Assembly: GCA_963756785.1 (NCBI GenBank)
Contig: CAVWPF010000007.1
Location: 21,117-45,116 of the forward strand
Direction of reading: 5' to 3'
DNA: 24,000 bases
Source of the DNA: an uncultured Actinomycetota bacterium
GTDB lineage: Bacteria; Actinomycetota; Actinomycetes; Sporichthyales; Sporichthyaceae
Made by a program: the position numbers and the translations under genes. Every line of letters starts with the position of its first letter. Within the stretch, counting starts at the first letter, position 1. Below the pieces are notes generated by a model. That model did no database searches, was not told the origin of the DNA, and saw only the letters and a list, made by a program, of their open reading frames with translations. Below, piece by piece: positions 2,315-15,731 of the stretch.

Positions 2315-2727
2315 CGACGAGCCGGCCGGACGGCCGCGCCGTGAGTCTTCCCGAGAGGCGAGCGGTGAGGAAAGTCCGGGCTCCACAGGGCACGGTGGTG
2401 GGTAACACCCACCCGGGGCGACCCGCGGGACAGTGCCACAGAAAACAAACCGCCGCCGGTTCGCCGGCGGTAAGGGTGAAACGGTGGTGTAAGAGACCAC
2501 CAGCGTCCGGGGTGACCCGGACGGCTAGGTAAACCCCACCCGGAGCAAGGCCAGGATCGTCGGGCACTTTCTTCAGCGCCCGGCGTGTGTGAGCGTTCGA
2601 GGGCTGCCCGCCCGAGCTCACAGGTAGGCCGCACGAGGCCGGCGGCAACGTCGGTCCCAGATGGATGGCCGTCAGTCGGGCCGCAAGGCCCGATTACAGA
2701 ACCCGGCTTACAGGCCGGCTCGTCGTC
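2315..2727 (+). ncRNA. rnpB: RNase P RNA, bacterial type A
   Basis: Universally conserved blocks are present. GAGGAAAGTCCGGGCTCCACAGGGCA starts at 2367 (P4 5' strand). ACAGAAAACAAACCGCC and GGTAAGGGTGAAACGGTGGTGTAAGAGACCACCAG follow. ACAGAACCCGGCTTA lies at 2696-2710 (P4 3' strand). 5' CGACGAGCCGGCC (2315-2327) is exactly complementary to 3' GGCCGGCTCGTCG (2713-2725), forming P1. A length of about 413 nt is normal for actinobacteria. Ends are accurate to a few nt. Confidence 0.92.
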
Positions 2728-4500: not shown

Positions 4501-4941
4501 GTGGCGATCGACGTGGAGAGTCGGGTGGTGATTCGCTGCCCGCTCGAACGGGTGGCTGCCTTCGCCGCCGACCCCGACCGGATCACCCAGTGGTATCGCC
4601 GGATCCAGTCGGTGCAGTGGCGCACCCCGAAACCGCTGGCAGTGGGCACCGAGCTCGACTTCACGGCACAGTTCCTCGGCCGCCGGCTGGTCTACACCTA
4701 TCGGGTGATCGAGCACGACCCCGGCCGGACGCTGGTCATGCGGACCACGGACGGGCCATTTCCGATGGAGACCACCTACACCTGGGAGGCAGTTGATGCC
4801 GACTCCACCCTGATGCGCTTGCGTAATCGGGGGGATCCGGCGGGCTTCTCCCGGCTCGTGGCCCCATTCCTGGGTCGGGCGGTCCGCCGTGCCAACCGGC
4901 AGGATCTACAGCGGCTGGCCGATCTTCTCCACGCTGCCTGA
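4501..4941 (+). CDS. SRPBCC-superfamily protein (polyketide cyclase/dehydrase-like, START/Bet v1 fold)
   Basis: 146 aa. GTG start is preceded by GAGGAG. The sequence VESRVVIRCPLERVAAFAADPDRITQWY....W.....L.VG......A.FLGRR..Y.Y.V.E.DPGR.LVMRT..GPFPMETTYTWE is the typical layout of SRPBCC family proteins. Confidence 0.8.
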   Translation: MAIDVESRVVIRCPLERVAAFAADPDRITQWYRRIQSVQWRTPKPLAVGTELDFTAQFLGRRLVYTYRVIEHDPGRTLVMRTTDGPFPMETTYTWEAVDADSTLMRLRNRGDPAGFSRLVAPFLGRAVRRANRQDLQRLADLLHAA

Positions 4942-5106: not shown

Positions 5107-6489
5107 TTAGCGAGCAGGACCTGGTCCACCGGTCGTATCGTGTGCGCGCCGCCCGCCGATCTCGACGAAGAACTGGGCGGCAGCCACCTGGACGGCGCTG
5201 GACCATGTCGGGTAGGCGTGCATCGTGGCGGCGAGGCGACCGGTGAACATGCCGGTGGCGATGGCCAGGGCCGCTTCGGCCAGCATCTCCCCGGCCCGCG
5301 GGGCGACGATGGTCGCGCCGAGCAGCCGGCCTCCGCCGAGGTTGCGGAGCACGGGGCGCGGTCCGGCGATCAGTTCGATGAAGCCCGCCGTGGCGTCGTC
5401 GGTGATCGCGCGGTCGACCTCGTCCAGGGGGAGGTGCGCGATGCGGGCACCGGTGGGTGCATCGTCGCGTCCCAGGCCGACCTGCGCGATCTCCGGGCTG
5501 GTGAACACCACCCGAGGAATCACGGGCGGGCGCCAGGGCCGGGGCCGGCGCCGCAGCGCGTTCGCGGCCGCGTGCCGGCCCATGTCGTCCGCCGCGTGGG
5601 TCAGCATGGCCCGGGCGGTGACATCCCCGGCGGCGAAGATGCCGGCGGCCGCGCGCAGCGTCGGGTCGGTGACGGGCACGCCGCGGACATCGACGCGGAT
5701 CCCGGCGGCGTCGAGACCGAGGTCGGCGGTCTCGGCTCGACGACCGGTGGCGACCAGCACCCGCTCGGCCTCGACGCGGGTGCCGTCACTGAGCACAGCG
5801 CTGGCCCCGGCTGCGCCGGGCACCAGGTTCTGCACGCCGGTCGCGGCGCGCACGGTGATCCCGGCTTCGGTGAAGACGTCGGTGAGGATCGCGGCGGCGC
5901 GGGCGTCCTCAGCGGGCAGGAGCCGGGGCCCGGTCTCGACGAGGGTGACCCGGGTCCCGAAGCGGGCGAAGGCCTGCGCCAGTTCGCAGCCGATCGCGCC
6001 GCCGCCGATCACGAGCAGCGAGTGCGGTGCCGAGCGCAGTTCGAACACGGACTCGTTGGTCAGGTACGGCACGTCGCCCAGCCCGGGAATAGGCGGGAGC
6101 GCCGGGCGTGAGCCGGTAGCGAGCACAACCCGCGATGCCTGCAGCAACATCCCGTCGACGTCGAGGTGGACGGAGCCGCGGGCGTTGCCGTGCAGGCGGG
6201 CGTGGCCACGGATGACCTCGATCCCTTCCGCGCGCAGTACGTCGGCGGACTCGGCTGCGGCGACGCGGTCGATCGCGGCGTGGATCCGAGCCGTCGCCGC
6301 CGGGAAGGTCAAGCCCGCCCGGGCGGCGGCGATCAGGGTCTTGGACGGTACGCAGCCGGTGAACGTGCAGTCCCCGCCCGGTTCGCTCGCGGTGATCAGC
6401 CGGACCCGGGCGCCGCGGCGGCGGGCCTCGCGCGCCGCGCCGAGTCCGGCGGCGCCGCCGCCGATGACCACGAGGTCGACGTCCTTCAT
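5107..6489 (-). CDS. Class-I pyridine nucleotide-disulfide oxidoreductase (MerA / dihydrolipoamide dehydrogenase-like flavoprotein disulfide reductase)
   Basis: 460 aa. FAD fold DLVVIGGGAAGLGAA, redox-active disulfide GGDCTFTGCVPSK (CxxxxC), NAD(P)H fold LLVIGGGAIGCELAQAF, and a C-terminal dimerisation motif HAYPTWSSAV. Its ATG (6489-6487) overlaps the upstream gene's TGA (6488-6486) as ATGA. There is no N-terminal HMA domain and no C-terminal Cys-Cys, so it is not a canonical MerA. Confidence 0.9.
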   Translation of the reverse strand: MKDVDLVVIGGGAAGLGAAREARRRGARVRLITASEPGGDCTFTGCVPSKTLIAAARAGLTFPAATARIHAAIDRVAAAESADVLRAEGIEVIRGHARLHGNARGSVHLDVDGMLLQASRVVLATGSRPALPPIPGLGDVPYLTNESVFELRSAPHSLLVIGGGAIGCELAQAFARFGTRVTLVETGPRLLPAEDARAAAILTDVFTEAGITVRAATGVQNLVPGAAGASAVLSDGTRVEAERVLVATGRRAETADLGLDAAGIRVDVRGVPVTDPTLRAAAGIFAAGDVTARAMLTHAADDMGRHAAANALRRRPRPWRPPVIPRVVFTSPEIAQVGLGRDDAPTGARIAHLPLDEVDRAITDDATAGFIELIAGPRPVLRNLGGGRLLGATIVAPRAGEMLAEAALAIATGMFTGRLAATMHAYPTWSSAVQVAAAQFFVEIGGRRAHDTTGGPGPAR

Positions 6490-7298
6490 TTGCGCGCCAC
6501 GAACAGGCTGTACCCGAGGTGCCCGGCGCTGATCGCGGCGCGGACCTCGGCGACCACCGCGGAAACCTCATCGCGGTCGATGGCCCGGATCGCGCCGCTG
6601 CGGGCGAGTATGCCGATCATCAGCAGACGGGCTTCGACCCGCTCGACCATGGCGACGAGCGCGTCGTCGTGGGCCTCGACCGTCTCCACCTCGAACCCGC
6701 CCGCAGTCAGCAGGCGCCGGTAGTCCACAGCGCTGCCGGCGCCGCCGATGCAGGCGATCCGGGACGCCCAGGTCCGCAGCCGGGGCGGCAGCCGGTCCAG
6801 GTCGGCCGTCACGTCGCTGATCCCGACCTGCCCGCCGGGACGCAGCGCGCGGAGCATCTCGGCGACCGCGGTCTCCTGGTCGGGGAAGGTGCACAACGCA
6901 CACTCGCAGATCACGGCATCGAACTCGCCGTCACCGACCGGCAGCGCCTCCGCGTCCCCGAGGCGAAATTCGGCGCGTGCCGTGAGTCCGGCCGACTCGG
7001 CCGCGGCCCACGCGTGCTCCACATTGCGCGCCGCCAAATCCACCCCGCATACCGCGACCGGGTAGGCCGCGGCGATGGCCAGCGCGCTGGTGCCGCGGCC
7101 GCTGGCAACATCGAGCAGCCGATCGTCGGCCCGCAGATCGAGGTGCGAGATCAGACGGTGCGTCAGATCCAGCCCTCCGGGGTGGAAGGATTGCCCCAGC
7201 AGGAGCGTCATCCAGTCCGCGCCATACGCCTCGGCGCAGCAGGCCTTGAAGTCCGCGGGATTGTCGCTGGTCAGTCGGCCGGTCGCCTGACTGTTCAT
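6486..7298 (-). CDS. ArsM-like, cysteine-lined class I SAM-dependent methyltransferase
   Basis: Start re-set to ATG 7298-7296 (MNSQATGRL), which overlaps the radical SAM stop as ATGA; the track start at 7502 lies inside the upstream gene. SAM motif I is LLDVASGRGTSA. N-terminal vicinal pair: KACCAEAY....LLGQSFHPGGLDLT. DAVICECALCTF places a Cys where ArsM has its ..SNC.. As-binding Cys. WASRIACIGGAGSAVDYRRLLTAGGFE parallels the ArsM W.GC.AGA....Y...L..AGF block. The comparison is from memory of ArsM sequences. Confidence 0.85.
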   Translation of the reverse strand: MNSQATGRLTSDNPADFKACCAEAYGADWMTLLLGQSFHPGGLDLTHRLISHLDLRADDRLLDVASGRGTSALAIAAAYPVAVCGVDLAARNVEHAWAAAESAGLTARAEFRLGDAEALPVGDGEFDAVICECALCTFPDQETAVAEMLRALRPGGQVGISDVTADLDRLPPRLRTWASRIACIGGAGSAVDYRRLLTAGGFEVETVEAHDDALVAMVERVEARLLMIGILARSGAIRAIDRDEVSAVVAEVRAAISAGHLGYSLFVARK

Positions 7299-8905
7299 GG
7301 CGCCGGTCGGGTGGGGTGGGCGGCATTGCGGGAGCCGTAGGGCGAGACGGTCAGCAGCGGCGCAAGCTCGTGGGCGTTGGGCACGACCGGGGAGATCGCC
7401 ACCCCGGACATCTGGGCCCGGACCTGTTCGCGATAGCCGACGGAGTTGTAGGCACAGAACGGGATGAGCCGTCCGTCGGGGGTGATCTCCTCGACGCAGC
7501 ATTTGCGCAGCTGCTTGGTGTTAAGCGTGTAGGGGTCCTGGAAGTCCTGGACGATGATCGCGAAGACGTGATCGGTAAGGGTTCTGATGACCGCAGGCAG
7601 GTCGATCCCGCAGGCATCGTCGCAGTCGAGAGCTTCGGTGATCATCCGCAGCCGCTCGTCCGTCGGGCCGGCGCCAAGGTTGGCCGAGGCACTCCACAGC
7701 TTCTCCAACGCCTCCTGGATGGCCAGGTCGGGGATGACCCGGTTGCTGACGTAGTCCAGGTAGTCCCCGATCTCGATCAGTCGGGGGATGGGGAGTAGCG
7801 AGAAGTCGTCAGTGCCTGGGATCCCGTCGGTCAGCAGGTAGGTGATGGAGCGGCAGGTGGGGAAACAGCACGGGACGGGGAAGAAGTCGCTGGCCCGGAA
7901 CCACTCGGGCAACTGTGCGGCGATGCCGTGGATGATGTCGGGGTTGGTCAGGCGTGTCAGCGGGTCGAAGGGCACGTGGCGACCGGAATGGGTGACCGGC
8001 TGGAACGCCACCGACCGGACCGCGGGGTGCTCGAGGCCGAACCGGATGATCGCCCCGAGCTCGTGTTCGTTGACTCCCTTCTCCACCGCGGCGACCAACG
8101 TGACCGTGAGGCCGACCTCGGCGCAGTTGTCGAGGGCGCGGCGTTTGATCTCGCGCAGGTCCCGTCCGCGGATCGCGCGGCTGGTCGCCTCTTCCAGGCC
8201 ATCGAACTGCAGGTAGATGGAGAGCGGGCGCCCGGGGGTGTTGCGTTCGCCGAGTGCGGCGACGAAGCGGCGGTCCGAGGCCAGCCGGATGCCGTTGGTG
8301 TTCAGGGTGACGACCTTGATCGGGCGGGCCTGGGCCAGGTCGATGAACTCCAGGATCTGCTTGTGGATGGTCGGTTCCCCGCCGGAGAACATCACGACCT
8401 CCGGTTCGCCCTCCGCGGCCACGAAGGCGTCGAGCATCACCGCGCACTGCTCGGCGGTGATCGAGTACCCGTCGGGTTGGTGGCCCGAGTCCGCAAAGCA
8501 AATCGGGCAGTCGAGGTTGCAGCCGGTGTTCACCTCGATCAGGCCAAGACACGCGTGCTGCTTGTGGTCCGGGCACAGCCCGCAGTCCGACGGGCACCCC
8601 TCCACCACCTCGGTCTGAAAGGTGAGCGGGATCGTGCCGGGCTTGTTGAACCGCACCGAGTCCAGGTACATCTGCGCGTCGCTGTAGACCAGCGCCTCGA
8701 ACTGCCCGTGCTCGCGACACCGCTTGCGCAGGTACACCTTGTCCTCACGGATGTTTACTTCCGCGTCGATGGTCACCTTGCACACCGGGCAGATCGAGCG
8801 GGTTGCCTCCAGGAACACCTCGGGATGTTCCCGGCGCGGCGGTGTTGCAGCGGGCGGAAGAAGGTCGGTCACCGAGTTCCCTTCGGGCGGCGCGGGTGTC
8901 GACAC
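7295..8905 (-). CDS. Multi-cluster radical SAM enzyme (Tes / GDGT-MAS / class-D radical SAM methylase-like architecture)
   Basis: 536 aa. N-terminal CPVC..(21 aa)..CREH zinc-ribbon or rubredoxin-like motif. Auxiliary CPSDCGLCPDHKQHAC (Cx3Cx2Cx7C). Canonical radical SAM CNLDCPIC-F (Cx3Cx2C) and the GGE motif MFSGGEPT. C-terminal Cys motifs PVPCCFPTC and RKCCVEEITPDGRLIPFCAYN. Start is GTG 8905; an alternative GTG at 8869 is preceded by GAAGGG. Confidence 0.88.
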   Translation of the reverse strand: MSTPAPPEGNSVTDLLPPAATPPRREHPEVFLEATRSICPVCKVTIDAEVNIREDKVYLRKRCREHGQFEALVYSDAQMYLDSVRFNKPGTIPLTFQTEVVEGCPSDCGLCPDHKQHACLGLIEVNTGCNLDCPICFADSGHQPDGYSITAEQCAVMLDAFVAAEGEPEVVMFSGGEPTIHKQILEFIDLAQARPIKVVTLNTNGIRLASDRRFVAALGERNTPGRPLSIYLQFDGLEEATSRAIRGRDLREIKRRALDNCAEVGLTVTLVAAVEKGVNEHELGAIIRFGLEHPAVRSVAFQPVTHSGRHVPFDPLTRLTNPDIIHGIAAQLPEWFRASDFFPVPCCFPTCRSITYLLTDGIPGTDDFSLLPIPRLIEIGDYLDYVSNRVIPDLAIQEALEKLWSASANLGAGPTDERLRMITEALDCDDACGIDLPAVIRTLTDHVFAIIVQDFQDPYTLNTKQLRKCCVEEITPDGRLIPFCAYNSVGYREQVRAQMSGVAISPVVPNAHELAPLLTVSPYGSRNAAHPTRPAP

Positions 8906-8942
8906 CCAGACAACTCTGGTGGTCGCTCGGCCGCGACCGTGC

Positions 8943-8958
8943 TGTCAGCGTTCTGACA
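8943..8958. promoter_or_regulatory. Box 1: TGTCAG-CGTT-CTGACA perfect palindrome upstream of the radical SAM operon
   Basis: Read directly: gcTGTCAGCGTTCTGACAtc. Its centre is 45.5 nt upstream of the GTG at 8905, in the 97-nt gap between the 9003..9224 gene and the radical SAM gene. Confidence 0.7.
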
Positions 8959-9002
8959 TCCCTGGGTGCGGCAGATGAGGAGAACGAGGGTCGATGGTCT
9001 CA

Positions 9003-9224
9003 TCAGTGCGCCGCGCGAAGCCCGAGCAGCCCAGCGAGGATGAGGACGAGACCGATCACGACCAACCGCACTGAGGCCCATCGCCAGGTGAGCGTGAGCG
9101 CTGCGATGGCCAGCACCAAGAACACACTTCCCTGGATCGCCACGACGCGATCTGTAGGTGGGAGCAGGATCTCCTCCCACCACGGGCGGTCCACCGCTTC
9201 CCCCTTGCTGATCAGCTTCTCCAC
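9003..9224 (-). CDS. Small two-TM membrane protein (hypothetical)
   Basis: 73 aa (63 aa from the internal GTG preceded by AGGGGGA). Two hydrophobic helices, VVAIQGSVFLVLAIAALTLTW and LVVIGLVLILAGLLGL. GC3 is high. It has its own palindromic box upstream. I recognise no family. Confidence 0.5.
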   Translation of the reverse strand: MEKLISKGEAVDRPWWEEILLPPTDRVVAIQGSVFLVLAIAALTLTWRWASVRLVVIGLVLILAGLLGLRAAH

Positions 9225-9266
9225 AGCTCCCAGGCTGCCTGCAGGTGAAGTCCCGCGACTGGGTGG

Positions 9267-9282
9267 TGTCAGCGAGCTGACA
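9267..9282. promoter_or_regulatory. Box 2: TGTCAG-CGAG-CTGACA perfect palindrome upstream of the small TM-protein gene
   Basis: Read directly: ggTGTCAGCGAGCTGACAag. Its centre is 50.5 nt upstream of the GTG at 9224, in the 82-nt gap after the glutaredoxin-like gene. Confidence 0.7.
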
Positions 9283-9306
9283 AGGTCCGGCTCGGGTGTG
9301 CCCTAT

Positions 9307-9651
9307 TCAGCGCCCGCGCGGCAAGCGTCGGCGAAGCCACCCCACCAACCCGCGGCGACCAGCAGTGTCGCGTCCAGCCGGCAGCAGTTCCGGGGCGAGG
9401 TCGGCGACGGCGCTAAGGACGTCCCGGAGGCGGGGAGCGACCAAGGCGCGAGCGCCGATGAAGACGGTGGGCACGGTCTCGTTCCCGCCGGCCACAGCGC
9501 GCACCCGCGCCGCGCCGGCGGGCTCGGCCCAGATGTTGGTCTCGCGGGTCGGGATGCCGGTCCGCGCCAGCCCTCGACGGAGGCGGCCGCAGAAGGGGCA
9601 CGATGGGCGCCAGTACACCTCGACCACCTCGATCCTCTTGGTGCGGCTCAC
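9307..9651 (-). CDS. Glutaredoxin-like / mycoredoxin-like thiol-disulfide oxidoreductase
   Basis: Start re-set to GTG 9651-9649, which overlaps the upstream TGA (9650-9648) as GTGA. Translation VSRTKRIEVVEVYWRPSCPFCGRLRRGLARTGIPTRETNIWAEPAGAARVRAVAGGNETVPTVFIG shows a CPFC active site and the cis-Pro TVPTV block of the thioredoxin fold. The track start at 9834 overlaps the upstream gene. Confidence 0.75.
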   Translation of the reverse strand: MSRTKRIEVVEVYWRPSCPFCGRLRRGLARTGIPTRETNIWAEPAGAARVRAVAGGNETVPTVFIGARALVAPRLRDVLSAVADLAPELLPAGRDTAGRRGLVGWLRRRLPRGR

Positions 9652-10070
9652 GCGAACCGCTCCAACCAGGACGTGAGTGCGTAGAGCCCCGCGTAGGTTG
9701 CGACGGCGATCCCGATCAAACCGAGCAGCCGGGTGCGGATGCGCCGGACTCCGGCGACCGAGCAGGCGTTCTGGCGGCGCAACGACCACCAGACCAGGCC
9801 GGCCAGAACGGCGAGGCCCGCCACGCGGAACCACCAGGCGTAGCCGTCATACAGCGTGTTCCCCCAGCTCAACGCCGTTGCCCCGCTGACCACCCCGACG
9901 GCGGCCAGGACGGTGGGACCGACGCAGCACAGGATTCCGGTAACGCCGGCCAGGACGCCGATCCGCCACCGCGGCGGTGCGGGCGGGTTCGATGACGGCA
10001 ATCCCAACGGCGGACCCGTCGCGGGCCGGCGATCGCGCGTCGTGTCGGTGTTCCGCGGCGGAGGGTTCAC
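9648..10070 (-). CDS. MerT-like three-TM transporter (mercuric/soft-metal transport protein superfamily)
   Basis: Start re-set to GTG 10070-10068, which overlaps the DUF427 TGA (10069-10067) as GTGA. TM1 GVTGILCCVGPTVLAAVGVVSGATALSWGN parallels Tn501 MerT SACCLGPLVLIALGFSGAWIGN (from memory). TM2 is followed by the loop WWSLRRQNACSVAG (MerT: AWRRIYRPAQACKPGDVC), but with a single Cys. TM3 is LLGLIGIAVATYAGLYAL. Confidence 0.65.
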   Translation of the reverse strand: MNPPPRNTDTTRDRRPATGPPLGLPSSNPPAPPRWRIGVLAGVTGILCCVGPTVLAAVGVVSGATALSWGNTLYDGYAWWFRVAGLAVLAGLVWWSLRRQNACSVAGVRRIRTRLLGLIGIAVATYAGLYALTSWLERFA

Positions 10071-10390
10071 CGGCGGTTCGCGGGGTGGACTTCGCGGACC
10101 TCCACGCCGTGCCAGAAGGCGACGTAGTTCTTGATCCGGCGGGCCAACGGGGAGGGGTGCGGGTAGTACCAGGCGGCAGCCGGGTTGACGATGCCGTCGA
10201 CCTCGACGTCGTAGTAGCGCGCCTTTCCCTTCCAGGGGCACAGCGAGGTACGGGTCGAGGCCGTCAGGTGCTCCTCGCGCAGGGAGTCCGGGGGGAAGTA
10301 GACGTTGCCCTCCACTCGTCGGATCTCGCTGGATTCGGCGATCACCGTGTCGTTCCACACCGCCTGCCACGTGCTCTTCATCGAACTCAT
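10067..10390 (-). CDS. DUF427 domain protein
   Basis: 107 aa. AESSEIRRVEGNVYFPPDSL....L..S...S.CPWKGKARYYDV.....V..AAWYYP.P...A..I.NYVAFW matches the DUF427 signature I recall (EGN.YFP, CPWKG.A.YY, VAFW). ATG is preceded by GGAAGGG. Confidence 0.85.
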   Translation of the reverse strand: MSSMKSTWQAVWNDTVIAESSEIRRVEGNVYFPPDSLREEHLTASTRTSLCPWKGKARYYDVEVDGIVNPAAAWYYPHPSPLARRIKNYVAFWHGVEVREVHPANRR

Positions 10391-10473
10391 CCCTTCCGCG
10401 TACGTTCTGATCTCGACCTGAGATGGAGCCTCGCCTCAGCAGAACACCGGGCGAACCGCTCGGTCGGTGACCG

Positions 10474-10489
10474 TGTCAGTGATCTGACA
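10474..10489. promoter_or_regulatory. Box 3: TGTCAG-TGAT-CTGACA perfect palindrome upstream of the DUF427 / MerT-like / Grx-like operon
   Basis: Read directly: cgTGTCAGTGATCTGACAga. It overlaps the stop codon (10478-10476) of the CPTC membrane-protein gene. Its centre is 91.5 nt upstream of the DUF427 ATG. Confidence 0.7.
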
Positions 10490-11042
10490 GAACCTGACCG
10501 AGGCGGCACGCGGGCGGCTGCAGCCGCCGATGCAGCGCCAGCAGCAAGACCGCGAGGGCCACCACACCGATCAGCGGCTGGACCGGTGCGAACAGTGAGA
10601 GTGCGCCCCCGGTGCCCAGGGCGGCCACGGCGGCAGCGTTGCACGTGGGGCACCCGATCGCGATGAGCGAGAGCAGACCACCGCCGACCGTCTGCCCGCC
10701 GCCGGTCTCGCTCGGGACCAGCCTGGGAGAACCGCCGCCACTGCTCATGGCTGCGAACCACATGCCCATGATGACCGCGGACAAGGCCCACAGCGGATAA
10801 GCCCAGAGCGGCGCAGGGATTGGGCGGGAGTACAACGAAGTGTCGATGATCCCGGTGGGTACCCCGGACACCAGGGCCGCTGCGATCGCGCTCAGCGTCG
10901 CGATCGTCCAACGCCGCGCACTCCACGACCGCAGGACGAGGACGTCTTCGTGCAGAGCGGTTCGGTAAGCGGCGACGCTCTGGGTCCGGCGCTGCCGTGC
11001 GGCTGCGCTCGGTGGTGGTCCGGGGGGAGTGGTCGCCGTCAT
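10476..11042 (-). CDS. Integral membrane protein with an intramembrane CPTC motif (hypothetical)
   Basis: 188 aa. It has an Arg-rich N-terminal tail and 4-5 hydrophobic segments. LLSLIAIGCPTCNAAAVAALGTGGALSLFAPVQPLIGVVALAVLLLAL carries a CxxC inside a predicted helix. I cannot name a family. Confidence 0.65.
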   Translation of the reverse strand: MTATTPPGPPPSAAARQRRTQSVAAYRTALHEDVLVLRSWSARRWTIATLSAIAAALVSGVPTGIIDTSLYSRPIPAPLWAYPLWALSAVIMGMWFAAMSSGGGSPRLVPSETGGGQTVGGGLLSLIAIGCPTCNAAAVAALGTGGALSLFAPVQPLIGVVALAVLLLALHRRLQPPACRLGQVLSDH

Positions 11043-11083
11043 ACCTCAACCTTCGGGTCCGCGGCAGGCTCGGAGTGGTGAGG

Positions 11084-11099
11084 TGTCAGGGAACTGACA
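11084..11099. promoter_or_regulatory. Box 4: TGTCAG-GGAA-CTGACA perfect palindrome upstream of the CPTC membrane-protein gene
   Basis: Read directly: ggTGTCAGGGAACTGACAat. Its centre is 49.5 nt upstream of the ATG at 11042, in the 97-nt gap after the Crp/Fnr gene. Confidence 0.7.
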
Positions 11100-11139
11100 A
11101 TCGATGTGCCCGGCCCGGCCGATCGCGTGGCCTGGTGAC

Positions 11140-11799
11140 TCACGCGAGTAGGGCTGCGAGCTTTCCCCGGTCGGTAATGGTGATCCTGCGGTAGGCCAGG
11201 GAGATCAGGCCGTGGCCTGCGAGTTCCTGAAGGACCTTGTTCAGGCTGGGGCGACGGGCCCCGAGCATGGCCGCCAGGGTGCTCTGGGAGATCGTGACCA
11301 CTCCCTCGTCGTCGGCCTCGTCGAGAAGCAGCTGTGCGGCCTGTGCGGTGAGTTTGCCCCCGAGCAGGCCGATCAACCGGTTCTGACTGTGGGCCAGCCG
11401 GGCCGCGACGCTGGCCAGCCAGCGCCGTGCGATCTGGCCGTGGCCGGCGATGATTGTCTCGAAGTCCTCCGGGGAGAGGTAGAGGCACTCGGCGTGCTCG
11501 AGGGCGCGGGCGGTGTACGGCATCGGCATGCCCAGCAGCAGAGGCACATCGCCCTCGATGTCGCCCGGTCGCAGTAGCGCCAGCACGGCGCGCTTGCGCC
11601 CCGAGCCGATCGAGAGTTCCACCCGCCCCGAGCGCACCAGCCACACCCCGGCTGAGGAGGCGTCCGGGCCGAAGAGGCGCTCGCCCGGCTCCAGGCTGCG
11701 CAGCTGCAGGTGATTGGCCAGCGCTGTCACGTCGGCGGGGGTGAGCGGAACAGCCGCACCGCGACCCACGCAGCGGGCCACCCAGGCCGCATGGCGCAC
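11140..11799 (-). CDS. Crp/Fnr-family transcriptional regulator
   Basis: N-terminal cNMP-binding-like beta-roll (LEPGERLFGPDASSAGVWLVRSGRVELSIG....LALLRPGDIEGDVPLL), a dimerisation helix, and a C-terminal wHTH (ISQSTLAAMLGARRPSLNKVLQELAGHGLI). Start re-set to GTG 11799 (219 aa, normal for the family) because box 5 lies inside the 5' extension of the track ORF (11934). The exact start is uncertain; other in-frame GTGs lie within the next 30 codons. Confidence 0.82.
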   Translation of the reverse strand: MRHAAWVARCVGRGAAVPLTPADVTALANHLQLRSLEPGERLFGPDASSAGVWLVRSGRVELSIGSGRKRAVLALLRPGDIEGDVPLLLGMPMPYTARALEHAECLYLSPEDFETIIAGHGQIARRWLASVAARLAHSQNRLIGLLGGKLTAQAAQLLLDEADDEGVVTISQSTLAAMLGARRPSLNKVLQELAGHGLISLAYRRITITDRGKLAALLA

Positions 11800-11835
11800 G
11801 GCGGCGGGGTCGGGCCCGCGCCGGGGGAGGACCTG

Positions 11836-11851
11836 TGTCAGCACGCTGACA
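11836..11851. promoter_or_regulatory. Box 5: TGTCAG-CACG-CTGACA perfect palindrome upstream of the Crp/Fnr gene (autoregulation candidate) in the divergent intergenic region
   Basis: Read directly: tgTGTCAGCACGCTGACAct. Its centre is 44.5 nt upstream of the proposed GTG 11799 and about 185 nt upstream of the divergent + strand gene at 12029. Confidence 0.7.
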
Positions 11852-12028
11852 CTGTATGCCGCCGCCGGTGGGCGACGACGGGATCGTGAGGCGTGGGGGC
11901 GCCCCTTCGGGATCTTCACGTGACGCAGGTGCAATCACCACGGGCCCGGCAGCGTCCCACTCGATGGACCCGCACTCACCCGAACCGGATCTGACCGGCC
12001 AGGGGCGCGACGATGGAGAGGAACACCG

Positions 12029-12559
12029 ATGGGGACTGTGCCCGGAACCGCCACCTCGGATGCGTTGACCATGCGGCTGTTCCGCGGAGCGATCGGGGGT
12101 GTCGGCGCCGGCCTGCTGTTCATCTGGGCCACGATGTGGTTCGCCTCGGAGATGCCCGACGGCAAGTCGGAGATGCCGCTACGGATGATCTCGACGATCC
12201 TCAAGGGCGACGGCGCGATGATGGAGGGCACGACCAGCGTCGGGCAGGGCTGGGCGATTCACCTGGTCCTCTCAGCTGCCTTCGGCATCACCTTCGCGCT
12301 CCTCACCCCGATGATGAAGACCAACGGGACGGTGCTGCTGGCGGGAACGATGTACGGCGCGATGCTCTACGTCGTCAATTTCCTGATCCTCGCACCGCTG
12401 GCGTTCACCACCTTCGAGGATGCCAACCAGCCCTTCGAGTTGGTCGTGCACATCGTCTTCGGCACGGTGATGGCGATGGCGTTTCTGTCCAGCGGGCCAC
12501 GACGCAACGAACCGGTGTGCGCGATGGACAAGCCCGCCCTGCACACCGCCGGCGTCTGA
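12029..12559 (+). CDS. Hypothetical integral membrane protein
   Basis: 176 aa with four hydrophobic segments (GVGAGLLFIWATMWF, WAIHLVLSAAFGITFALL, VLLAGTMYGAMLYVVNFLILAPL, VVHIVFGTVMAMAFL). ATG is preceded by GGAGAGG. An alternative ATG at 12071 would give MRLFRG. It ends 27 nt before the ECF sigma gene. Confidence 0.6.
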   Translation: MGTVPGTATSDALTMRLFRGAIGGVGAGLLFIWATMWFASEMPDGKSEMPLRMISTILKGDGAMMEGTTSVGQGWAIHLVLSAAFGITFALLTPMMKTNGTVLLAGTMYGAMLYVVNFLILAPLAFTTFEDANQPFELVVHIVFGTVMAMAFLSSGPRRNEPVCAMDKPALHTAGV

Positions 12560-12586: not shown

Positions 12587-13171
12587 GTGAACTCGCCACC
12601 GGCCGGTGCCGACTTCGTCGGCACCGTGATGCCGTCGGTGGATCTGGTGCACAACCTGGCCCGCCGGCTCGTCCGTCGACCCGAGGACGCCGCGGATCTG
12701 GTGCAGGACACCCTGACCCGGGCCTGGGAGGCCTGGACCCGTGGTGTTCGGCCCGAATCGGTCCCCGCGTGGTTGTCCACCATCTGTCTCAACCTTGCGC
12801 GCGACCAGGCCCGCCGGGCGGCCCGGCGCCGCGAGACCGGCTGGGACCAGTCTCCCGAGCCGGCGGCGGAGGTCGACGTCGCCGGGGCGGCGATCGCCCG
12901 GGTCCAACGGGCACAGATCGAGGCAGCCTTGTGGGCGCTGCCCGAGGTTCAACGGATCGCGATCGTGCTGATGGACATCTGCGGGCTCAGCGCAGCGGAG
13001 GTGGGCGCGGTTCTCGACGCACCGCGGGGAACCGTCCTGGCCCGGGTTCATCGAGGGCGCAAAGCGTTGGCGGCCGAGGTGGCCCGCCGGGCCCGACGAC
13101 CCGACCCCCGACAGGCCGTAGACCGCCGAGATGCCGTAGCGGAGGACTCCGATGACCAGCCCCCCGCATGA
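12587..13171 (+). CDS. ECF-type RNA polymerase sigma-70 family factor
   Basis: Region 2 (PEDAADLVQDTLTRAWEAW....PAWLSTICLNLARDQARR) and region 4.2 (LPEVQRIAIVLMDICGLSAAEVGAVLDAPRGTVLARVHRGRKAL) are clear. The start at GTG 12587 is tentative. Confidence 0.9.
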   Translation: MNSPPAGADFVGTVMPSVDLVHNLARRLVRRPEDAADLVQDTLTRAWEAWTRGVRPESVPAWLSTICLNLARDQARRAARRRETGWDQSPEPAAEVDVAGAAIARVQRAQIEAALWALPEVQRIAIVLMDICGLSAAEVGAVLDAPRGTVLARVHRGRKALAAEVARRARRPDPRQAVDRRDAVAEDSDDQPPA

Positions 13172-13907
13172 TCCGGAGGCCGCAGCTGCGGCCTACCTCG
13201 CTGCTGACTTCAGCCCGGACGGACGAGGGGAATTCGAGGCGCACCTCCTCGAATGCGAAGCGTGTTGGGGTGAGGTTCGCAGTGCCCGGGACGGCCGCGC
13301 GCTGGCAGAAGATCTGCGCGAGAGCGCTCCCCAGGCGGCGCGGGAATTTCTGCGCACACTCGGCTCCGACACCGGTGGGGCCGGCGGGGATGCCACAGGC
13401 GTTGCCGTCAGCCGATCCGCCGGTACCGGGCAAGGGCAGCGACGATCCTGGCTCTCGATCGCGGCGGCGGTCATCGCCGGTGCCGCGCTCACCGGCGGGC
13501 TGCTGCTCGGTCCGCTGAGCGAGGGTTCCCAGGATGGCCGCGCGCAGCTCGCCGCCGCCGCCGCCCTCTACACCGACGACGCTCTCGCCGTCGTGCGCAC
13601 CGGAACACCGCCGGTTGTCCGGCTGGGGGCCCTGGGGTGGCGCGGCACCTCGACCGCATCGTTGGCCGGCCAGCCGGCCACGGTCCACCGCTACGCCGAT
13701 GCCGGAGGGCACCGGGTGCTCCTGGTCAGTTCCCTGCGCGAGTTCCCGAGGCCGAAGGACGCCCAGACGGTGCTCGGATCGAGCTGGAGCGCCCGGATCG
13801 ACGGCACCGCCATCTTCTGTGTCGATCACGGTGGTCTGTCCTGGCTGGTGATCGGTGCATCCCGTGACCTGGCGATCGAGGCCGGTCGGCAGGCGGGGCT
13901 GGCATGA
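13152..13907 (+). CDS. Membrane-anchored anti-sigma factor with a zf-HC2 / ZAS motif
   Basis: ATG is preceded by GGAGGA and overlaps the sigma gene by 20 nt. N-terminal EFEAHLLECEACW is H-x3-C-x2-C. There is a single TM, WLSIAAAVIAGAALTGGLLLG, and a roughly 130-aa extracytoplasmic domain. Its stop overlaps the next ATG as ATGA. Confidence 0.8.
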   Translation: MTSPPHDPEAAAAAYLAADFSPDGRGEFEAHLLECEACWGEVRSARDGRALAEDLRESAPQAAREFLRTLGSDTGGAGGDATGVAVSRSAGTGQGQRRSWLSIAAAVIAGAALTGGLLLGPLSEGSQDGRAQLAAAAALYTDDALAVVRTGTPPVVRLGALGWRGTSTASLAGQPATVHRYADAGGHRVLLVSSLREFPRPKDAQTVLGSSWSARIDGTAIFCVDHGGLSWLVIGASRDLAIEAGRQAGLA

Positions 13908-15094
13908 ACGCGATCGGGACGCCCTCGCGCCGGGCCGTGCTCGCCGGCGCGGGGTTGTTCGTCCTCGCCGGCTGCGGGGCCGGGTCCGGATCATCCACGG
14001 CGGGGTCCGCACCCTCCGCCGGGGACGCCGGATCCTCTGGGCAGGCCGGGGCGTCCGGGCCGTCGGCCCTGGACGACCCCCGGGCCCCCGGTCTGCCCGA
14101 CCCGCTGATCGACACCGACCGGCTAGTCTCCGGCGGCCCAGGGCCGGACGGCATCCCGTCGATCGACTCGCCACGGTTCCGCGGTCCCGAGGTCGAAGGC
14201 GATCTGGTCGACGACGAGCCGGTCCTGGCGATCGAGCTCGAGGGCGTCGCGCGGGCGTACCCGATCCGGATCATGATCTGGCACGAGATCGTCAACGACA
14301 CCGTCGCCGGCATTCCGCTGGCGATCACGTACTGCCCGTTGTGCAACTCCGCGCTGGCGTTCGAGCGTCGCGTGGACGGCCGCGAGCTGACCTTCGGGGT
14401 CTCCGGGCTGCTCTACAACTCCGACCTGGTGATGTTCGACCGCCAGACCGAGTCGCTGTGGCCGCAGATCGAGGGCCGGGCCGTCGCCGGAGTGCTCACC
14501 GGGACCGAGCTGACCCGCCAGACCGTCACCGTCCAACCCTGGGCCACCTGGCGCGAAGCGCATCCGCGCGGCGAGGTGCTCTCCGCCGACACCGGCCACC
14601 GCCGGGACTACGGGCGCAACCCCTACCCGGGTTACGACAACCCCGGGGACCGTCCGTTCCTGTACCAGGGTGAGCTCGATGATCGGCTGCCGCCGAAGGC
14701 CCGGGTGATCGCGCTCCGGGCGGCCGATGAGGATCTGGTGATCGCCTTCGACCGGGTGGAGCGCGATCGCGTCGTCACCGCGCGGATCGGCGGACGTCCG
14801 GTCGTCGTGCTCGCCGGCCCGCCGGCCGCCTCACCCCTCGACGACGACCGGATTGCCGACGGGAGACCCCGGGTCAGCGCGCGGGTCTTCGACCCGCTCC
14901 TGGACCGGCGCCGGCTGACGTTTCTCGCCGAGGGGAACGGTTATCGCGACACCGCCACGGGGTCCCGCTGGGACGCCGATGGCCACGCCCGCTCCGGTCC
15001 GCTGGCCGGCCGGTCCCTCGCGCCGGTCGAGGCCACCGAGACCTTGTGGTTCGCCTGGATCGCGTTCCGCCCCGACAGCCGCACCCTGCTCTGA
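13904..15094 (+). CDS. DUF3179 domain protein, predicted Tat-exported lipoprotein
   Basis: 396 aa. The N-terminus TPSRRAVLAGAGLFVLAGC combines a twin-arginine motif with a lipobox. DUF3179-type blocks as I recall them: GPDGIPSIDSPRF, RAYPIRIMIWHEIVND, PLAITYCPLCNSALAF and GVSGLLYNSDLVMFDRQTESLWPQ. Confidence 0.85.
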   Translation: MNAIGTPSRRAVLAGAGLFVLAGCGAGSGSSTAGSAPSAGDAGSSGQAGASGPSALDDPRAPGLPDPLIDTDRLVSGGPGPDGIPSIDSPRFRGPEVEGDLVDDEPVLAIELEGVARAYPIRIMIWHEIVNDTVAGIPLAITYCPLCNSALAFERRVDGRELTFGVSGLLYNSDLVMFDRQTESLWPQIEGRAVAGVLTGTELTRQTVTVQPWATWREAHPRGEVLSADTGHRRDYGRNPYPGYDNPGDRPFLYQGELDDRLPPKARVIALRAADEDLVIAFDRVERDRVVTARIGGRPVVVLAGPPAASPLDDDRIADGRPRVSARVFDPLLDRRRLTFLAEGNGYRDTATGSRWDADGHARSGPLAGRSLAPVEATETLWFAWIAFRPDSRTLL

Positions 15095-15137
15095 CCCGAC
15101 CATCCGCCGCGCCTCGCCGACCACCCAGGAGCCACGA

Positions 15138-15731
15138 ATGACCTTGCGCCCTCGTCCGATCCGCACCGTCCGCCCGGTCAGCGCGGCCGCGTTGGCTGCG
15201 GCCGCGCTCGTCTTCCTCGCCGGCTGTGGCAGCGGCTCGGATGCCGACGCCGCCGCGCCTGCCGCCGCGCCCGCGGCGGCGCCCGCCGCCGCGGGGGCCG
15301 GCCCGGCGACCGATGCGGGGGTGCCCCCGCCGATGCAGTTCACCGCCGCCGCGGTCGACGGCTCCAGGGTCGACGGTGCGGCCCTGGCGGCCAAGCCCAC
15401 GGTGGCCTGGTTCTGGACGCCCTGGTGCGCGATCTGCCGCGGTGAGGCACCCGAGGTGGCCGCGATGGCCGACAAGTACGCGGACCGGGTGAACTTCGTC
15501 GGGATCGCCGGTCTGGGCAAGGTCGCGGACATGAAGAGGTTCGTCTCCGACACCGGCGTGGGTGGCTTCGCCCACGCCATCGATGCCGACGGCAGCCTGT
15601 GGCGCGGGTTCGGGGTCATCGGGCAGCCGTCCTTCGCGTTCGTGCACCCGGACGGCACCGTCGAGGTCGTGCCCGGCTCCCTGTCCCCGGCCGATCTGGA
15701 GCGGCGCATCTCCGGCATGACCAATGCCTGA
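15138..15731 (+). CDS. TlpA/ResA-like thioredoxin-fold lipoprotein
   Basis: Start re-set to ATG 15138 (AGGAGC upstream). The signal plus lipobox is AAAALVFLAGC, followed by an Ala/Pro linker. Active site is WFWTPWCAICRGEAP (WCxxC). The cis-Pro region is GVIGQPSFAFV. Confidence 0.85.
   Translation: MTLRPRPIRTVRPVSAAALAAAALVFLAGCGSGSDADAAAPAAAPAAAPAAAGAGPATDAGVPPPMQFTAAAVDGSRVDGAALAAKPTVAWFWTPWCAICRGEAPEVAAMADKYADRVNFVGIAGLGKVADMKRFVSDTGVGGFAHAIDADGSLWRGFGVIGQPSFAFVHPDGTVEVVPGSLSPADLERRISGMTNA
15249..15296 (+). repeat. Imperfect 12-nt tandem repeat (x4) encoding the (AAAP)3-AAAG linker
   Basis: gccgccgcgcct / gccgccgcgccc / gcggcggcgccc / gccgccgcgggg, in frame within the thioredoxin lipoprotein gene. 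This is low-complexity coding sequence, not CRISPR. Confidence 0.5.

Follow-up and report, generated by a model that had tools for sequence, protein, structure and literature searches.

Five palindromes in an actinomycetotal locus are very probably operators of the Cmr ortholog encoded beside them

Cmr of Mycobacterium tuberculosis (Rv1675c) is a redox- and NO-sensing regulator with approximately 200 binding regions in that organism, and SELEX, footprint, and ChIP data have established its consensus site as TGTCA-N6-(C/T)GACA. The discriminator bases 4C/13G set Cmr sites apart from those of CRP: in published mutagenesis, 4C/13G abolished binding of CRP-Mt and favoured Cmr, and residue Pro209 of the M. 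tuberculosis protein has been connected to the discriminator bases by its authors. The operator of the M. tuberculosis cmr gene (Pcmr), TGTCAGCGTGCTGACA, was proven by EMSA, binding being abolished when the operator was mutated, and autorepression by Cmr has been demonstrated in BCG and M. tuberculosis. Other members of the Crp/Fnr family are CRP (M. tuberculosis Rv3676, E. coli) with the site TGTGA-N6-TCACA, FNR with TTGAT-N4-ATCAA, and CooA, the CO sensor of Rhodospirillum rubrum, whose motif has been described by the authors of the motif study as nearly identical to that of Cmr. CO has no effect on M. tuberculosis Cmr.

The window analysed here is a stretch of 24,000 nucleotides (24 kb). 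A pattern scan for exact TGTCAG-N4-CTGACA returned five copies within 2.9 kb, given here without strand: box 1 (TGTCAGCGTTCTGACA, 8943..8958) upstream of a radical SAM-methyltransferase-flavoprotein operon, box 2 (TGTCAGCGAGCTGACA, 9267..9282) upstream of a small 2-TM gene, box 3 (TGTCAGTGATCTGACA, 10474..10489) upstream of a DUF427-MerT-like-Grx operon, box 4 (TGTCAGGGAACTGACA, 11084..11099) upstream of a gene for a membrane protein with a CPTC motif, and box 5 (11836..11851), a candidate autoregulatory operator. Read on the minus strand, box 5 matches the M. tuberculosis Pcmr operator in 16/16 bases. No further site with ≤2 mismatches to the 12-base pattern occurs in the window. From the base composition of the window, 0.00047 sites are expected per 24 kb (analytic; Poisson P(≥5) ~2e-19), and 0/100 dinucleotide-preserving shuffles of the sequence yielded the pattern. 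Thus, the five palindromes, the absence of other copies and the chance estimate of 0.0005 per 24 kb put forward in an earlier, sequence-only reading were all borne out. The looser pattern TGTCA-N6-TGACA with ≤2 mismatches was found 7 times in the window compared to 4.9 expected, which is chance level, the only extra sites being at 1559 and 8897. In the close relative L001, box 1 is identical, box 4 retains its arms with one change in the spacer, and box 2 is kept in 16/16 positions despite a flanking intergenic region that is only 34% identical and contains an 88-nt indel.

By sequence comparison, the Crp/Fnr-family protein encoded next to box 5 (234 aa; 11140..11844, minus strand) is an ortholog of M. 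tuberculosis Cmr. In a search of solved structures it matched 5W5A/5W5B with an E value of 7e-69, over the full length of 5W5A, whereas the runner-up, CRP-Mt, reached 4e-11. The protein has the Pfam domains cNMP_binding and HTH_Crp_2, and several of its hundreds of homologs (55–67% identity) bear the name Cmr. Its only two cysteines, Cys25 and Cys120, align exactly with Cys36 and Cys131 of the M. tuberculosis protein and are invariant in alignment A1, as is the recognition helix R-P-S..N-K with the equivalent of Pro209, a position occupied by Glu in CRP. With two cysteines, an FNR-type four-cysteine [4Fe-4S] cluster is impossible. Differences from the M. tuberculosis protein are a shorter N-terminus (234 versus 244 aa) and an Arg-loop that is only partially conserved (G-R-K-R versus R-R-R-R). 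A shorter gene starting at 11799 had been proposed. However, the codon at this position reads GTC, GTA or CGA in relatives, and the 16 codons from GTG 11844 differ from L001 exclusively by synonymous changes, whereas the extension upstream of this GTG displays 7 non-synonymous changes and 1 synonymous change. The comparison thus places the start of cmr at GTG 11844, inside box 5.

All local boxes are perfect TGTCA-N6-TGACA versions carrying the Cmr-specific 4C and 13G. The previous assertion of a half-site distinct from those already known is therefore rejected, as it is the published half-site of Cmr, described as nearly identical to that of CooA. CRP sites share the 5-6-5 dyad and core positions 2, 3, 14, and 15 with the boxes but have G/C instead of C/G at positions 4/13, a difference that excludes CRP-Mt according to published work. 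Similarly, FNR is a dimeric protein acting on a dyad, and 6-bp arms with a 4-bp gap fit the FNR notation, but its half-site is unrelated. For CooA, no orthology to the local Cmr was seen in our searches, and the Cmr subfamily senses via two cysteines.

The box was then counted in 79 cmr loci across Actinomycetota (1.33 Mb), where the core box occurred 111 times compared to ~0.2 expected. Within 1 kb of the cmr start there were 0.44 boxes per kb, and the frequency was still ~100-fold over chance out to 10 kb from cmr. Allowing ≤1 mismatch and ≤300 nt upstream, a box was located at or upstream of cmr in 57/79 loci and upstream of DUF427 genes in 33/45 loci, many of the latter at a fixed 81.5–85.5 nt from residue 9. 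Radical SAM homologs were preceded by a box in 17/29 loci (22/29 at ≤2 mismatches) and flavoprotein genes in 17/42, while about 5% of random windows carried one. No box was found at operon-internal methyltransferase genes (0/33). The check for enrichment in orthologous loci proposed earlier thus had a positive outcome, as did that for conserved position, the boxes preceding the same gene families. In contrast, the suggested connection of box 5 to the ECF sigma cluster is not conserved, since none of 10 ECF sigma genes in related loci has a box; the gene conserved in divergent orientation to cmr encodes a DUF1440-like membrane protein.

Two of the local units are translationally coupled minus-strand operons whose products were assigned by Pfam and NCBIfam. 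The first (5107..8872, ATGA overlap at both junctions) encodes a radical SAM enzyme related to Tes/TrsS (7295–8872; PDB 7TOL, GDGT-MAS, E 1.7e-72), an ArsM/DVU_1556-like methyltransferase (6486–7298), and a MerA/Lpd-like flavoprotein disulfide reductase (5107–6489). Its better-supported start, GTG 8872, is 78.5 nt from the centre of box 1. The second operon (9307..10381, GTGA overlap at both junctions) comprises DUF427 (10067–10381), a MerT-like membrane protein (9648–10070), and a mycoredoxin-like glutaredoxin (9307–9651). Its first ATG (10390) is ATC in L001, and from the better-supported ATG 10381 the centre of box 3 is 100.5 nt away. The 2-TM gene (9003..9224, minus strand; 73 aa) had no family match in Pfam, but 15 synonymous versus 4 non-synonymous codon differences to L001 indicate that it is coding. 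The CPTC gene (10476..11042, minus strand) is 95% identical in L001, is rare near cmr in the other loci of the set, and received no family assignment from Pfam or NCBIfam. Box centres lie 50.5 nt (2-TM) and 49.5 nt (CPTC) from the starts of these two genes, which are preceded by a box only in the window and L001; their putative membership in the regulon is thus supported by no more than two nearly identical genomes. In cmr, the distance from GTG 11844 is ~0 nt. Each box had been assigned to a gap in front of a minus-strand unit. The upstream placement stands, but box 3 covers the final 13 nt of the CPTC gene including the stop codon, and box 5 spans the GTG start of cmr. With the start codons corrected, the spacing of 44.5–50.5 nt claimed for four units is true for two only, and the promoter-proximal, short-leader geometry derived from it was built in part on wrong start codons.

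A -10-like hexamer, TACAGT (11852..11857, minus strand), abuts box 5, and its last T precedes GTG 11844 by 7 nt. All Nocardioides-like loci have a hexamer of the TA(G/C)AGT type at the corresponding place. Among the other genera, 47/59 loci show a [TC]ANNNT hexamer that overlaps the right box arm, often with ATG or GTG ~7 nt downstream. This arrangement suggests that cmr is leaderless and autorepressed: box 5 would span both the -10 hexamer and the GTG at which the leaderless mRNA begins, so that Cmr would repress its own gene. Autoregulation through box 5, as predicted previously, is therefore supported by this geometry and by the identity with Pcmr. In M. tuberculosis, the operator instead lies between two transcription start sites, ~150 nt ahead of the annotated cmr start. 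In both organisms, cmr and a membrane or redox gene diverge from a common region that contains the own-gene operator, and redoxin-type genes (TlpA/DsbF-like) are nearby. The divergent gene in the window (12029..12559, plus strand) encodes a DUF1440-like protein whose homology to the divergently transcribed neighbour of cmr and the box extends to 11 further loci by profile comparison (E 2e-15), in addition to 9 tblastn hits. By analogy with M. tuberculosis rv1676, it is a probable further target, and box 5 probably also governs this membrane-protein operon.

Taken together, Cmr orthology, the 4C/13G motif, the identity of box 5 with Pcmr, and the recurrence in 79 loci make it very probable that dimeric Cmr, encoded at 11140–11844, uses the five palindromes as operators, one of them autoregulatory, in line with the initial proposal. 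If the mechanism of the M. tuberculosis protein, ~55–60% identical, can be transferred, reduced Cmr would bind the boxes tightly, a Cys25-Cys120 disulfide would lower DNA binding, and nitrosation of the cysteines would lower it more strongly. Thiol-oxidative or nitrosative stress would then be the signal to which the local genes respond, with thiol-reactive metals or metalloids as a possible additional cue. A comparison across loci revealed no shared -10 offset among the target promoters, so activation and repression are not separable from sequence; for the four units other than cmr we lean slightly towards repression that is relieved under stress. Derepression under stress is the commoner mode for genes of the thiol-repair or detoxification type, which counts against reduced Cmr being a class-II-like activator of these four units, a mode in which they would be active in cells without stress and switched down upon nitrosation or oxidation. 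We regard such activation as possible but the less likely arrangement. In vitro, M. tuberculosis Cmr does activate transcription from the divergent rv1676 promoter and from the downstream promoter of cmr. Moreover, were GTG 8905 the first codon of a leaderless radical SAM mRNA, the centre of box 1 would fall at about -45, and a -10-like hexamer, CAGAGT, would follow 24 nt after the box. However, the comparison with L001 renders a start at 8905 unlikely, the targets lack a conserved -10 spacing, and a CACGGT hexamer directly past box 1 would position the box between -35 and -10 elements.

The protein bound to the boxes might mainly be a different genomic Crp/Fnr paralog, such as a CRP/GlxR-type cAMP receptor or an FNR- or CooA-type regulator, given that motifs overlap within the family, as with Cmr and CooA, and that certain Cmr and CRP sites coincide in M. 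tuberculosis. This is improbable in view of the discriminator bases, of the box accompanying cmr itself in 57 of the 79 loci and overlapping its promoter, and of the window containing no second Crp/Fnr gene; the FNR-type variant is further opposed by the cysteine content of the adjacent gene product. Even less probable is a function in the transcript, with the boxes folding into RNA hairpins between the minus-strand genes and serving in termination, attenuation or stabilisation. Each box does sit both 3' of one gene and 5' of the next, and its 6-bp arms can pair around a loop of 4 nt. However, folding is weak (-6.5 to -10.7 kcal/mol with flanks; z-scores from -0.2 to -2.1), no T-run follows any box, and a terminator scan found none. 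The arms are invariant across loci, without covariation, and positions 6 and 11 are frequently non-complementary, as in TGTCAGCGTGGTGACA, a pattern that points to a factor such as a protein reading the bases themselves and not to selection on RNA pairing. We give least credence to a dispersed short repeat (a REP/MITE-like element or recombination site) clustered here by accident. Identical 12-base arms do occur five times, and among the matches listed the 14-base consensus appears singly in many unrelated metagenome contigs; those single occurrences span all GC contents and may be chance matches, similarity between the boxes ends at 16–17 bp, and in cmr loci from many genera the same gene families are preceded by boxes whose positions are conserved.

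Beyond M. tuberculosis Cmr and its operator, the locus has four further perfect boxes, flanking the Tes/TrsS-like radical SAM and DUF427 operons and two small membrane genes, none of which is named as a Cmr target in the Cmr literature searched. We concluded that the regulator and its site are known, while the set of adjacent thiol-/metal-type genes is partly new. The core regulon, not described for M. tuberculosis, is conserved across Actinomycetota, which represents a modest novelty.

A scan for TGTCAGNNNNCTGACA gave exactly five matches in the 24 kb window, at 8943 (box 1), 9267 (box 2), 10474 (box 3), 11084 (box 4) and 11836 (box 5), which recovers all five palindromes listed in the sequence-only reading. 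At the base composition of the window 0.00047 sites are expected per 24 kb, in line with the chance estimate of about 0.0005 given there, and no match occurred in 100 dinucleotide-preserving shuffles of the window. Allowing up to two mismatches added no further site in the 24 kb. With the looser core TGTCA-N6-TGACA and up to two mismatches, only two extra sites were obtained (1559 and 8897), both at chance level. The latter site (8897-8912, TGTCGACACCCAGACA, two mismatches) is located 46 bp from box 1 within the probable leader of the radical SAM gene, and its arms are kept in L001, the locus of the nearest relative (Cmr 92% identical), which carries all five boxes. Being statistically at chance level, it was not counted as a further operator.

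The Cmr consensus obtained by SELEX, DNase footprinting and ChIP-seq is TGTCA-N6-(C/T)GACA (PMC4705688), and C at position 4 together with G at position 13 separates Cmr sites from CRP sites (PMC5758884). Both bases are present in all five boxes, in contrast to CRP-type sites (TGTGA-N6-TCACA), which have G at 4 and C at 13; FNR sites (TTGAT-N4-ATCAA) likewise differ from the half-site TGTCA of the window. The operator between cmr and rv1676 of M. tuberculosis is TGTCAGCGTGCTGACA, in which a four-base mutation abolishes binding (PMC5499769). On the minus strand box 5 has the identical 16-mer, placing a TGTCA-N6-TGACA operator of 16 bp at the regulator's own gene. The half-site had been thought to be unlike known ones; it does differ from those of CRP and FNR, but since box 5 and the motif equal the published Cmr site, that statement was wrong.

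The regulator encoded at 11140-11844 on the minus strand (234 aa) has an N-terminal cNMP-binding-like beta-barrel (PF00027, E 1e-16) and a C-terminal HTH_Crp_2 domain (PF13545, E 1e-13). It matches M. tuberculosis Cmr (Rv1675c; PDB 5W5A/5W5B) over residues 2-215 of 219 with E 7e-69, while the second-best characterised relative, CRP-Mt, reaches E 4e-11. Actinobacterial homologs at 55-67% identity number in the hundreds, and several carry the name Cmr in their source annotation. The NO/redox-sensing cysteines Cys36 and Cys131 of the M. tuberculosis protein align exactly with cysteines of the window protein, and neither varies among 17 orthologs (alignment positions C55 and C150); FNR-type regulators, in contrast, carry a four-cysteine [4Fe-4S] cluster, and the window protein has two cysteines only. 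The recognition helix reads ARRPSLNK compared to AQRPSINK in M. tuberculosis, with R228, P229, S230, N232 and K233 invariant in the alignment. Pro209 of M. tuberculosis Cmr, which replaces a CRP Glu, has been tied by its authors to the discriminator bases and favours 4C/13G. The Arg-loop that supports binding to imperfect sites (R93-R96, RRRR) is G-R-K-R in the window protein, three of four residues being basic, and has the consensus G-R-R-R among orthologs. By its full-length match, its two cysteines and its recognition helix the window regulator is a Cmr ortholog. The cAMP-independent, sequence-specific binding that marks this subfamily, lowered by oxidation or nitrosation, would be expected of it too.

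The predicted start codon of cmr, GTG 11844, falls within the box 5 spacer. The N-terminus of orthologs reads M/V-V-T-Q-L-L-P, of which LLP is common to longer N-termini too. Compared to L001, the 16 codons after 11844 show three synonymous and no non-synonymous changes, and the TTG extension upstream shows one synonymous and seven non-synonymous changes. A start at 11799, as proposed earlier, is not tenable: the equivalent codon is GTC, GTA or CGA in four relatives, and the coding signal reaches GTG 11844. The last base of the hexamer TACAGT (11852-11857) precedes this GTG by 7 nt, and the same arrangement of hexamer and start recurs in all Nocardioides-like loci; in other genera, a [TC]ANNNT hexamer overlaps the right arm in 47 of 59 loci, and the start codon often follows about 7 nt further on. 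Because the hexamer lies 7 nt before a GTG within the box and recurs in relatives, the arrangement indicates a putatively leaderless cmr whose core promoter would lie under the operator, resulting in autorepression. Autorepression by Cmr is known from BCG and M. tuberculosis (PMC4705688, PMC5499769). The autoregulation suggested by the sequence-only reading is thereby supported, as box 5 overlaps the predicted core promoter and start of cmr.

Two further starts were reassigned. The more probable start of the radical SAM gene is GTG 8872, which has a Shine-Dalgarno-like GAAGGGA; of the four changes to L001 in the 11 codons upstream, three are non-synonymous, and the N-termini of homologs lie near residue 19-24. 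For DUF427, ATG 10381 is the predicted start, because the first ATG is ATC in L001. As a consequence of the corrected starts, the spacing of about 50 nt between box and start that had been noted before is kept by boxes 2 and 4 only. At DUF427, radical SAM and flavoprotein promoters, -10 hexamers downstream of the box showed no common offset: none reached 25%, other than artefacts due to divergent boxes being shared, and a scan of 8800-12100 with the sigma-70 promoter consensus gave no match. In the absence of a common -10 offset, activation and repression are both compatible with the promoter sequences of the non-cmr targets.

All targets of the boxes are encoded on the minus strand. Box 1 precedes an operon whose first gene, the main target, encodes a radical SAM enzyme (7295-8872; NCBIfam, PDB 7TOL) that carries an HMPTM-type zinc ribbon and is a full-length homolog of archaeal GDGT-MAS/Tes (PDB 7TOL, E 1.7e-72). 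Assignment as a TrsS or Tes equivalog was rejected, as the scores of 341 bits (NCBIfam cut-off 490) and 311 bits (cut-off 450), respectively, are below both curated cut-offs; the protein is related to both families only. Translationally coupled to it is an ArsM/DVU_1556-like methyltransferase with a CC motif (6486-7298), and the operon also encodes a MerA/Lpd-like flavoprotein. Box 2 is followed by the gene of a 73-aa protein with two transmembrane segments (2-TM), box 3 by an operon for DUF427, a weakly MerT-like membrane protein and a mycoredoxin-like glutaredoxin (Grx), and box 4 by the gene of a 188-aa membrane protein without family assignment. ATGA or GTGA overlaps at four gene junctions indicate two translationally coupled operons.

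Other features of the window were also noted. The flavoprotein gene is closely followed by a gene on the other strand that has no box and encodes an SRPBCC/polyketide-cyclase-like protein (4501-4941, plus strand; PF10604, E 1.7e-16). A bacterial class A RNase P RNA at 2318-2726 (plus strand; full-length match, 289.6 bits, E 4.6e-94) implies that several long ORFs listed there are spurious. Downstream of the DUF1440-like gene, the plus strand encodes an ECF sigma factor (12587-13171), an anti-sigma-like protein with the H-x3-C-x2-C motif HLLECEAC (13152-13907), a DUF3179 protein (13904-15094) and a TlpA/AhpC-like redoxin within 14979-15731. This sigma-to-redoxin unit (12587-15731) is a second unit of thiol-redox flavour adjoining the Cmr regulon.

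The comparison set comprised 79 loci with Cmr orthologs on contigs from one genome per species. These loci contain 111 core boxes in 1.33 Mb, compared to about 0.2 expected. Their density is 0.44 per kb up to 1 kb from the start of cmr, and still 0.02-0.08 per kb out to 10 kb. Families recurring near cmr were DUF427 (45 loci), flavoprotein (44), methyltransferase (33), radical SAM (32), MerT-like (31) and Grx (22); the radical SAM homologs are 65-78% identical and come from many actinobacterial genera. Positions were counted as a box with at most one mismatch up to 300 nt upstream of a gene, a pattern present in about 5% of random windows. By this count the positional conservation at orthologous loci, proposed by the sequence-only reading as a check, was clear: a box lies upstream of cmr in 57 of 79 loci and of DUF427 in 33 of 45. 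The flavoprotein gene has one in 17 of 42 loci and the radical SAM gene in 17 of 29, or 22 of 29 with up to two mismatches. No box was found upstream of the operon-internal methyltransferase (0/33) or of ECF sigma genes in related loci (0/10), the latter speaking against the earlier tie of box 5 to the sigma cluster. In many genera the DUF427 box lies 81.5-85.5 nt from residue 9. Box 2 is intact in L001 amid an intergenic region of 34% identity with an 88-nt indel. In this strongly diverged gap between the Grx and 2-TM genes (window 9225-9306, L001 12629-12794) only the box is kept, and the two genomes are otherwise 92-97% identical.

Boxes also precede genes for an AhpD/CMD-like protein, a TlpA/DsbF-like redoxin, a multicopper oxidase and, in divergent orientation to cmr, a DUF1440-like membrane protein. 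Two of these, the redoxin and the oxidase, recall the M. tuberculosis Cmr targets rv1676-dsbF and Rv0846c (PMC4705688, PMC5499769). In L066, a Mycobacterium relative, a perfect box precedes the multicopper oxidase gene (about 8947-9115), a parallel to Rv0846c, the second-strongest Cmr ChIP peak in BCG (PMC4705688). In the 111 pooled boxes, C at position 7 and G at position 10 each reach 82%, G at 6 and C at 11 reach 59%, and the flanks are A-rich at -4 and -2. This extends the Cmr motif to TGTCA-[G]-C-N-N-G-[C]-TGACA, or TGTCAGC-NN-GCTGACA. Double perfect boxes, 28-31 bp or about three helical turns apart, occur in the intergenic region upstream of cmr in L032, L035, L049, L053, L055, L059, L069, L071 and L073 (about 9820-9930 in most). 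These are Amycolatopsis-, Mycobacterium- or Actinophytocola-like loci, several with DUF427 divergent there. Such pairs point to a separate operator for each promoter or to a cooperative mode of binding. Three perfect core boxes at 4900, 6441 and 8278, within 3.4 kb, were also observed on L163, a metagenome contig of 56% GC in whose examined stretch no Cmr ortholog was detected; the trio may be a related regulon of another lineage, or chance.

Binding of the boxes by another Crp/Fnr paralog is unlikely given their 4C/13G discriminator bases and their linkage to cmr. The palindromes could also work at the RNA level, as hairpins or terminators, yet the five boxes fold weakly with ordinary energies, their arms are invariant across loci without covariation, T-runs are missing, and the 8800-12100 scan contained no terminator-like site, all of which makes this improbable. 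Nor do the boxes resemble a REP/MITE-like dispersed repeat: in a repeat search similarity stopped at 16-17 bp without a larger unit, and the 24 kb window holds no further copy, so we regard this origin as unlikely too. A metagenome scan with the 14-base consensus TGTCAGCNNGCTGACA returned at least 120 contigs of all GC contents with a single box each, and among the matches listed one only (L187, a metagenome contig) adjoins DUF427 and flavoprotein genes. These matches look dominated by unrelated single sites and are silent on dispersal of the motif.

If the boxes are Cmr operators, reduced Cmr dimers would occupy all five. A Cys25-Cys120 disulfide would lower binding, and nitrosation of both cysteines would do so more strongly, by analogy with M. 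tuberculosis Cmr, for which Kd values of 19 nM (reduced), 220 nM (oxidised) and 510 nM (nitrosated) were reported (PMC5499769). With less Cmr bound, the four downstream units, cmr itself and the divergently transcribed membrane-protein operon would be expressed differently. The targets, comprising a disulfide reductase, a mycoredoxin, cysteine-pair membrane proteins and an ArsM-like methyltransferase, fit a response to thiol stress, NO or thiol-reactive metalloids.

The regulator family, its motif and its autoregulation have been published, so the motif itself is not new. New are this Cmr member, the putatively leaderless operator-over-start layout and the conserved Cmr-box gene set, of which we found no description in the Cmr literature searched. 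Searches on TrsS function, on Tes homologs in Actinobacteria and on Cmr/Rv1675c with DUF427 or radical SAM likewise revealed no link. For annotation, three start codons (cmr, radical SAM and DUF427) are revised.

To our knowledge, Cmr has been studied almost solely as a virulence-linked regulator of the tuberculosis complex, and debate continues over which genes form its core regulon and which physiological signal it senses. In the present locus and its 79 relatives, perfect Cmr operators precede recurrent thiol-, metal- and radical-SAM-type operons of environmental Actinomycetota. A tentative reading, held with some doubt, is that control of a compact module for an uncharacterised thiol/NO/metalloid-stress pathway is the original role of Cmr, conserved throughout Actinomycetota, and that the DosR-linked role in tuberculosis is a later, lineage-specific addition. 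The module would comprise a Tes/TrsS-related radical SAM enzyme, an ArsM-like methyltransferase, a MerA-like disulfide reductase, DUF427, a MerT-like cysteine-pair membrane protein, a mycoredoxin and the DUF1440-like protein, and has not been described for M. tuberculosis. NO or thiol stress is predicted to alter the expression of an uncharacterised pair, the Tes-like radical SAM enzyme and its methyltransferase. The locus therefore offers a testable hypothesis on what Cmr may have controlled before mycobacterial pathogenesis.
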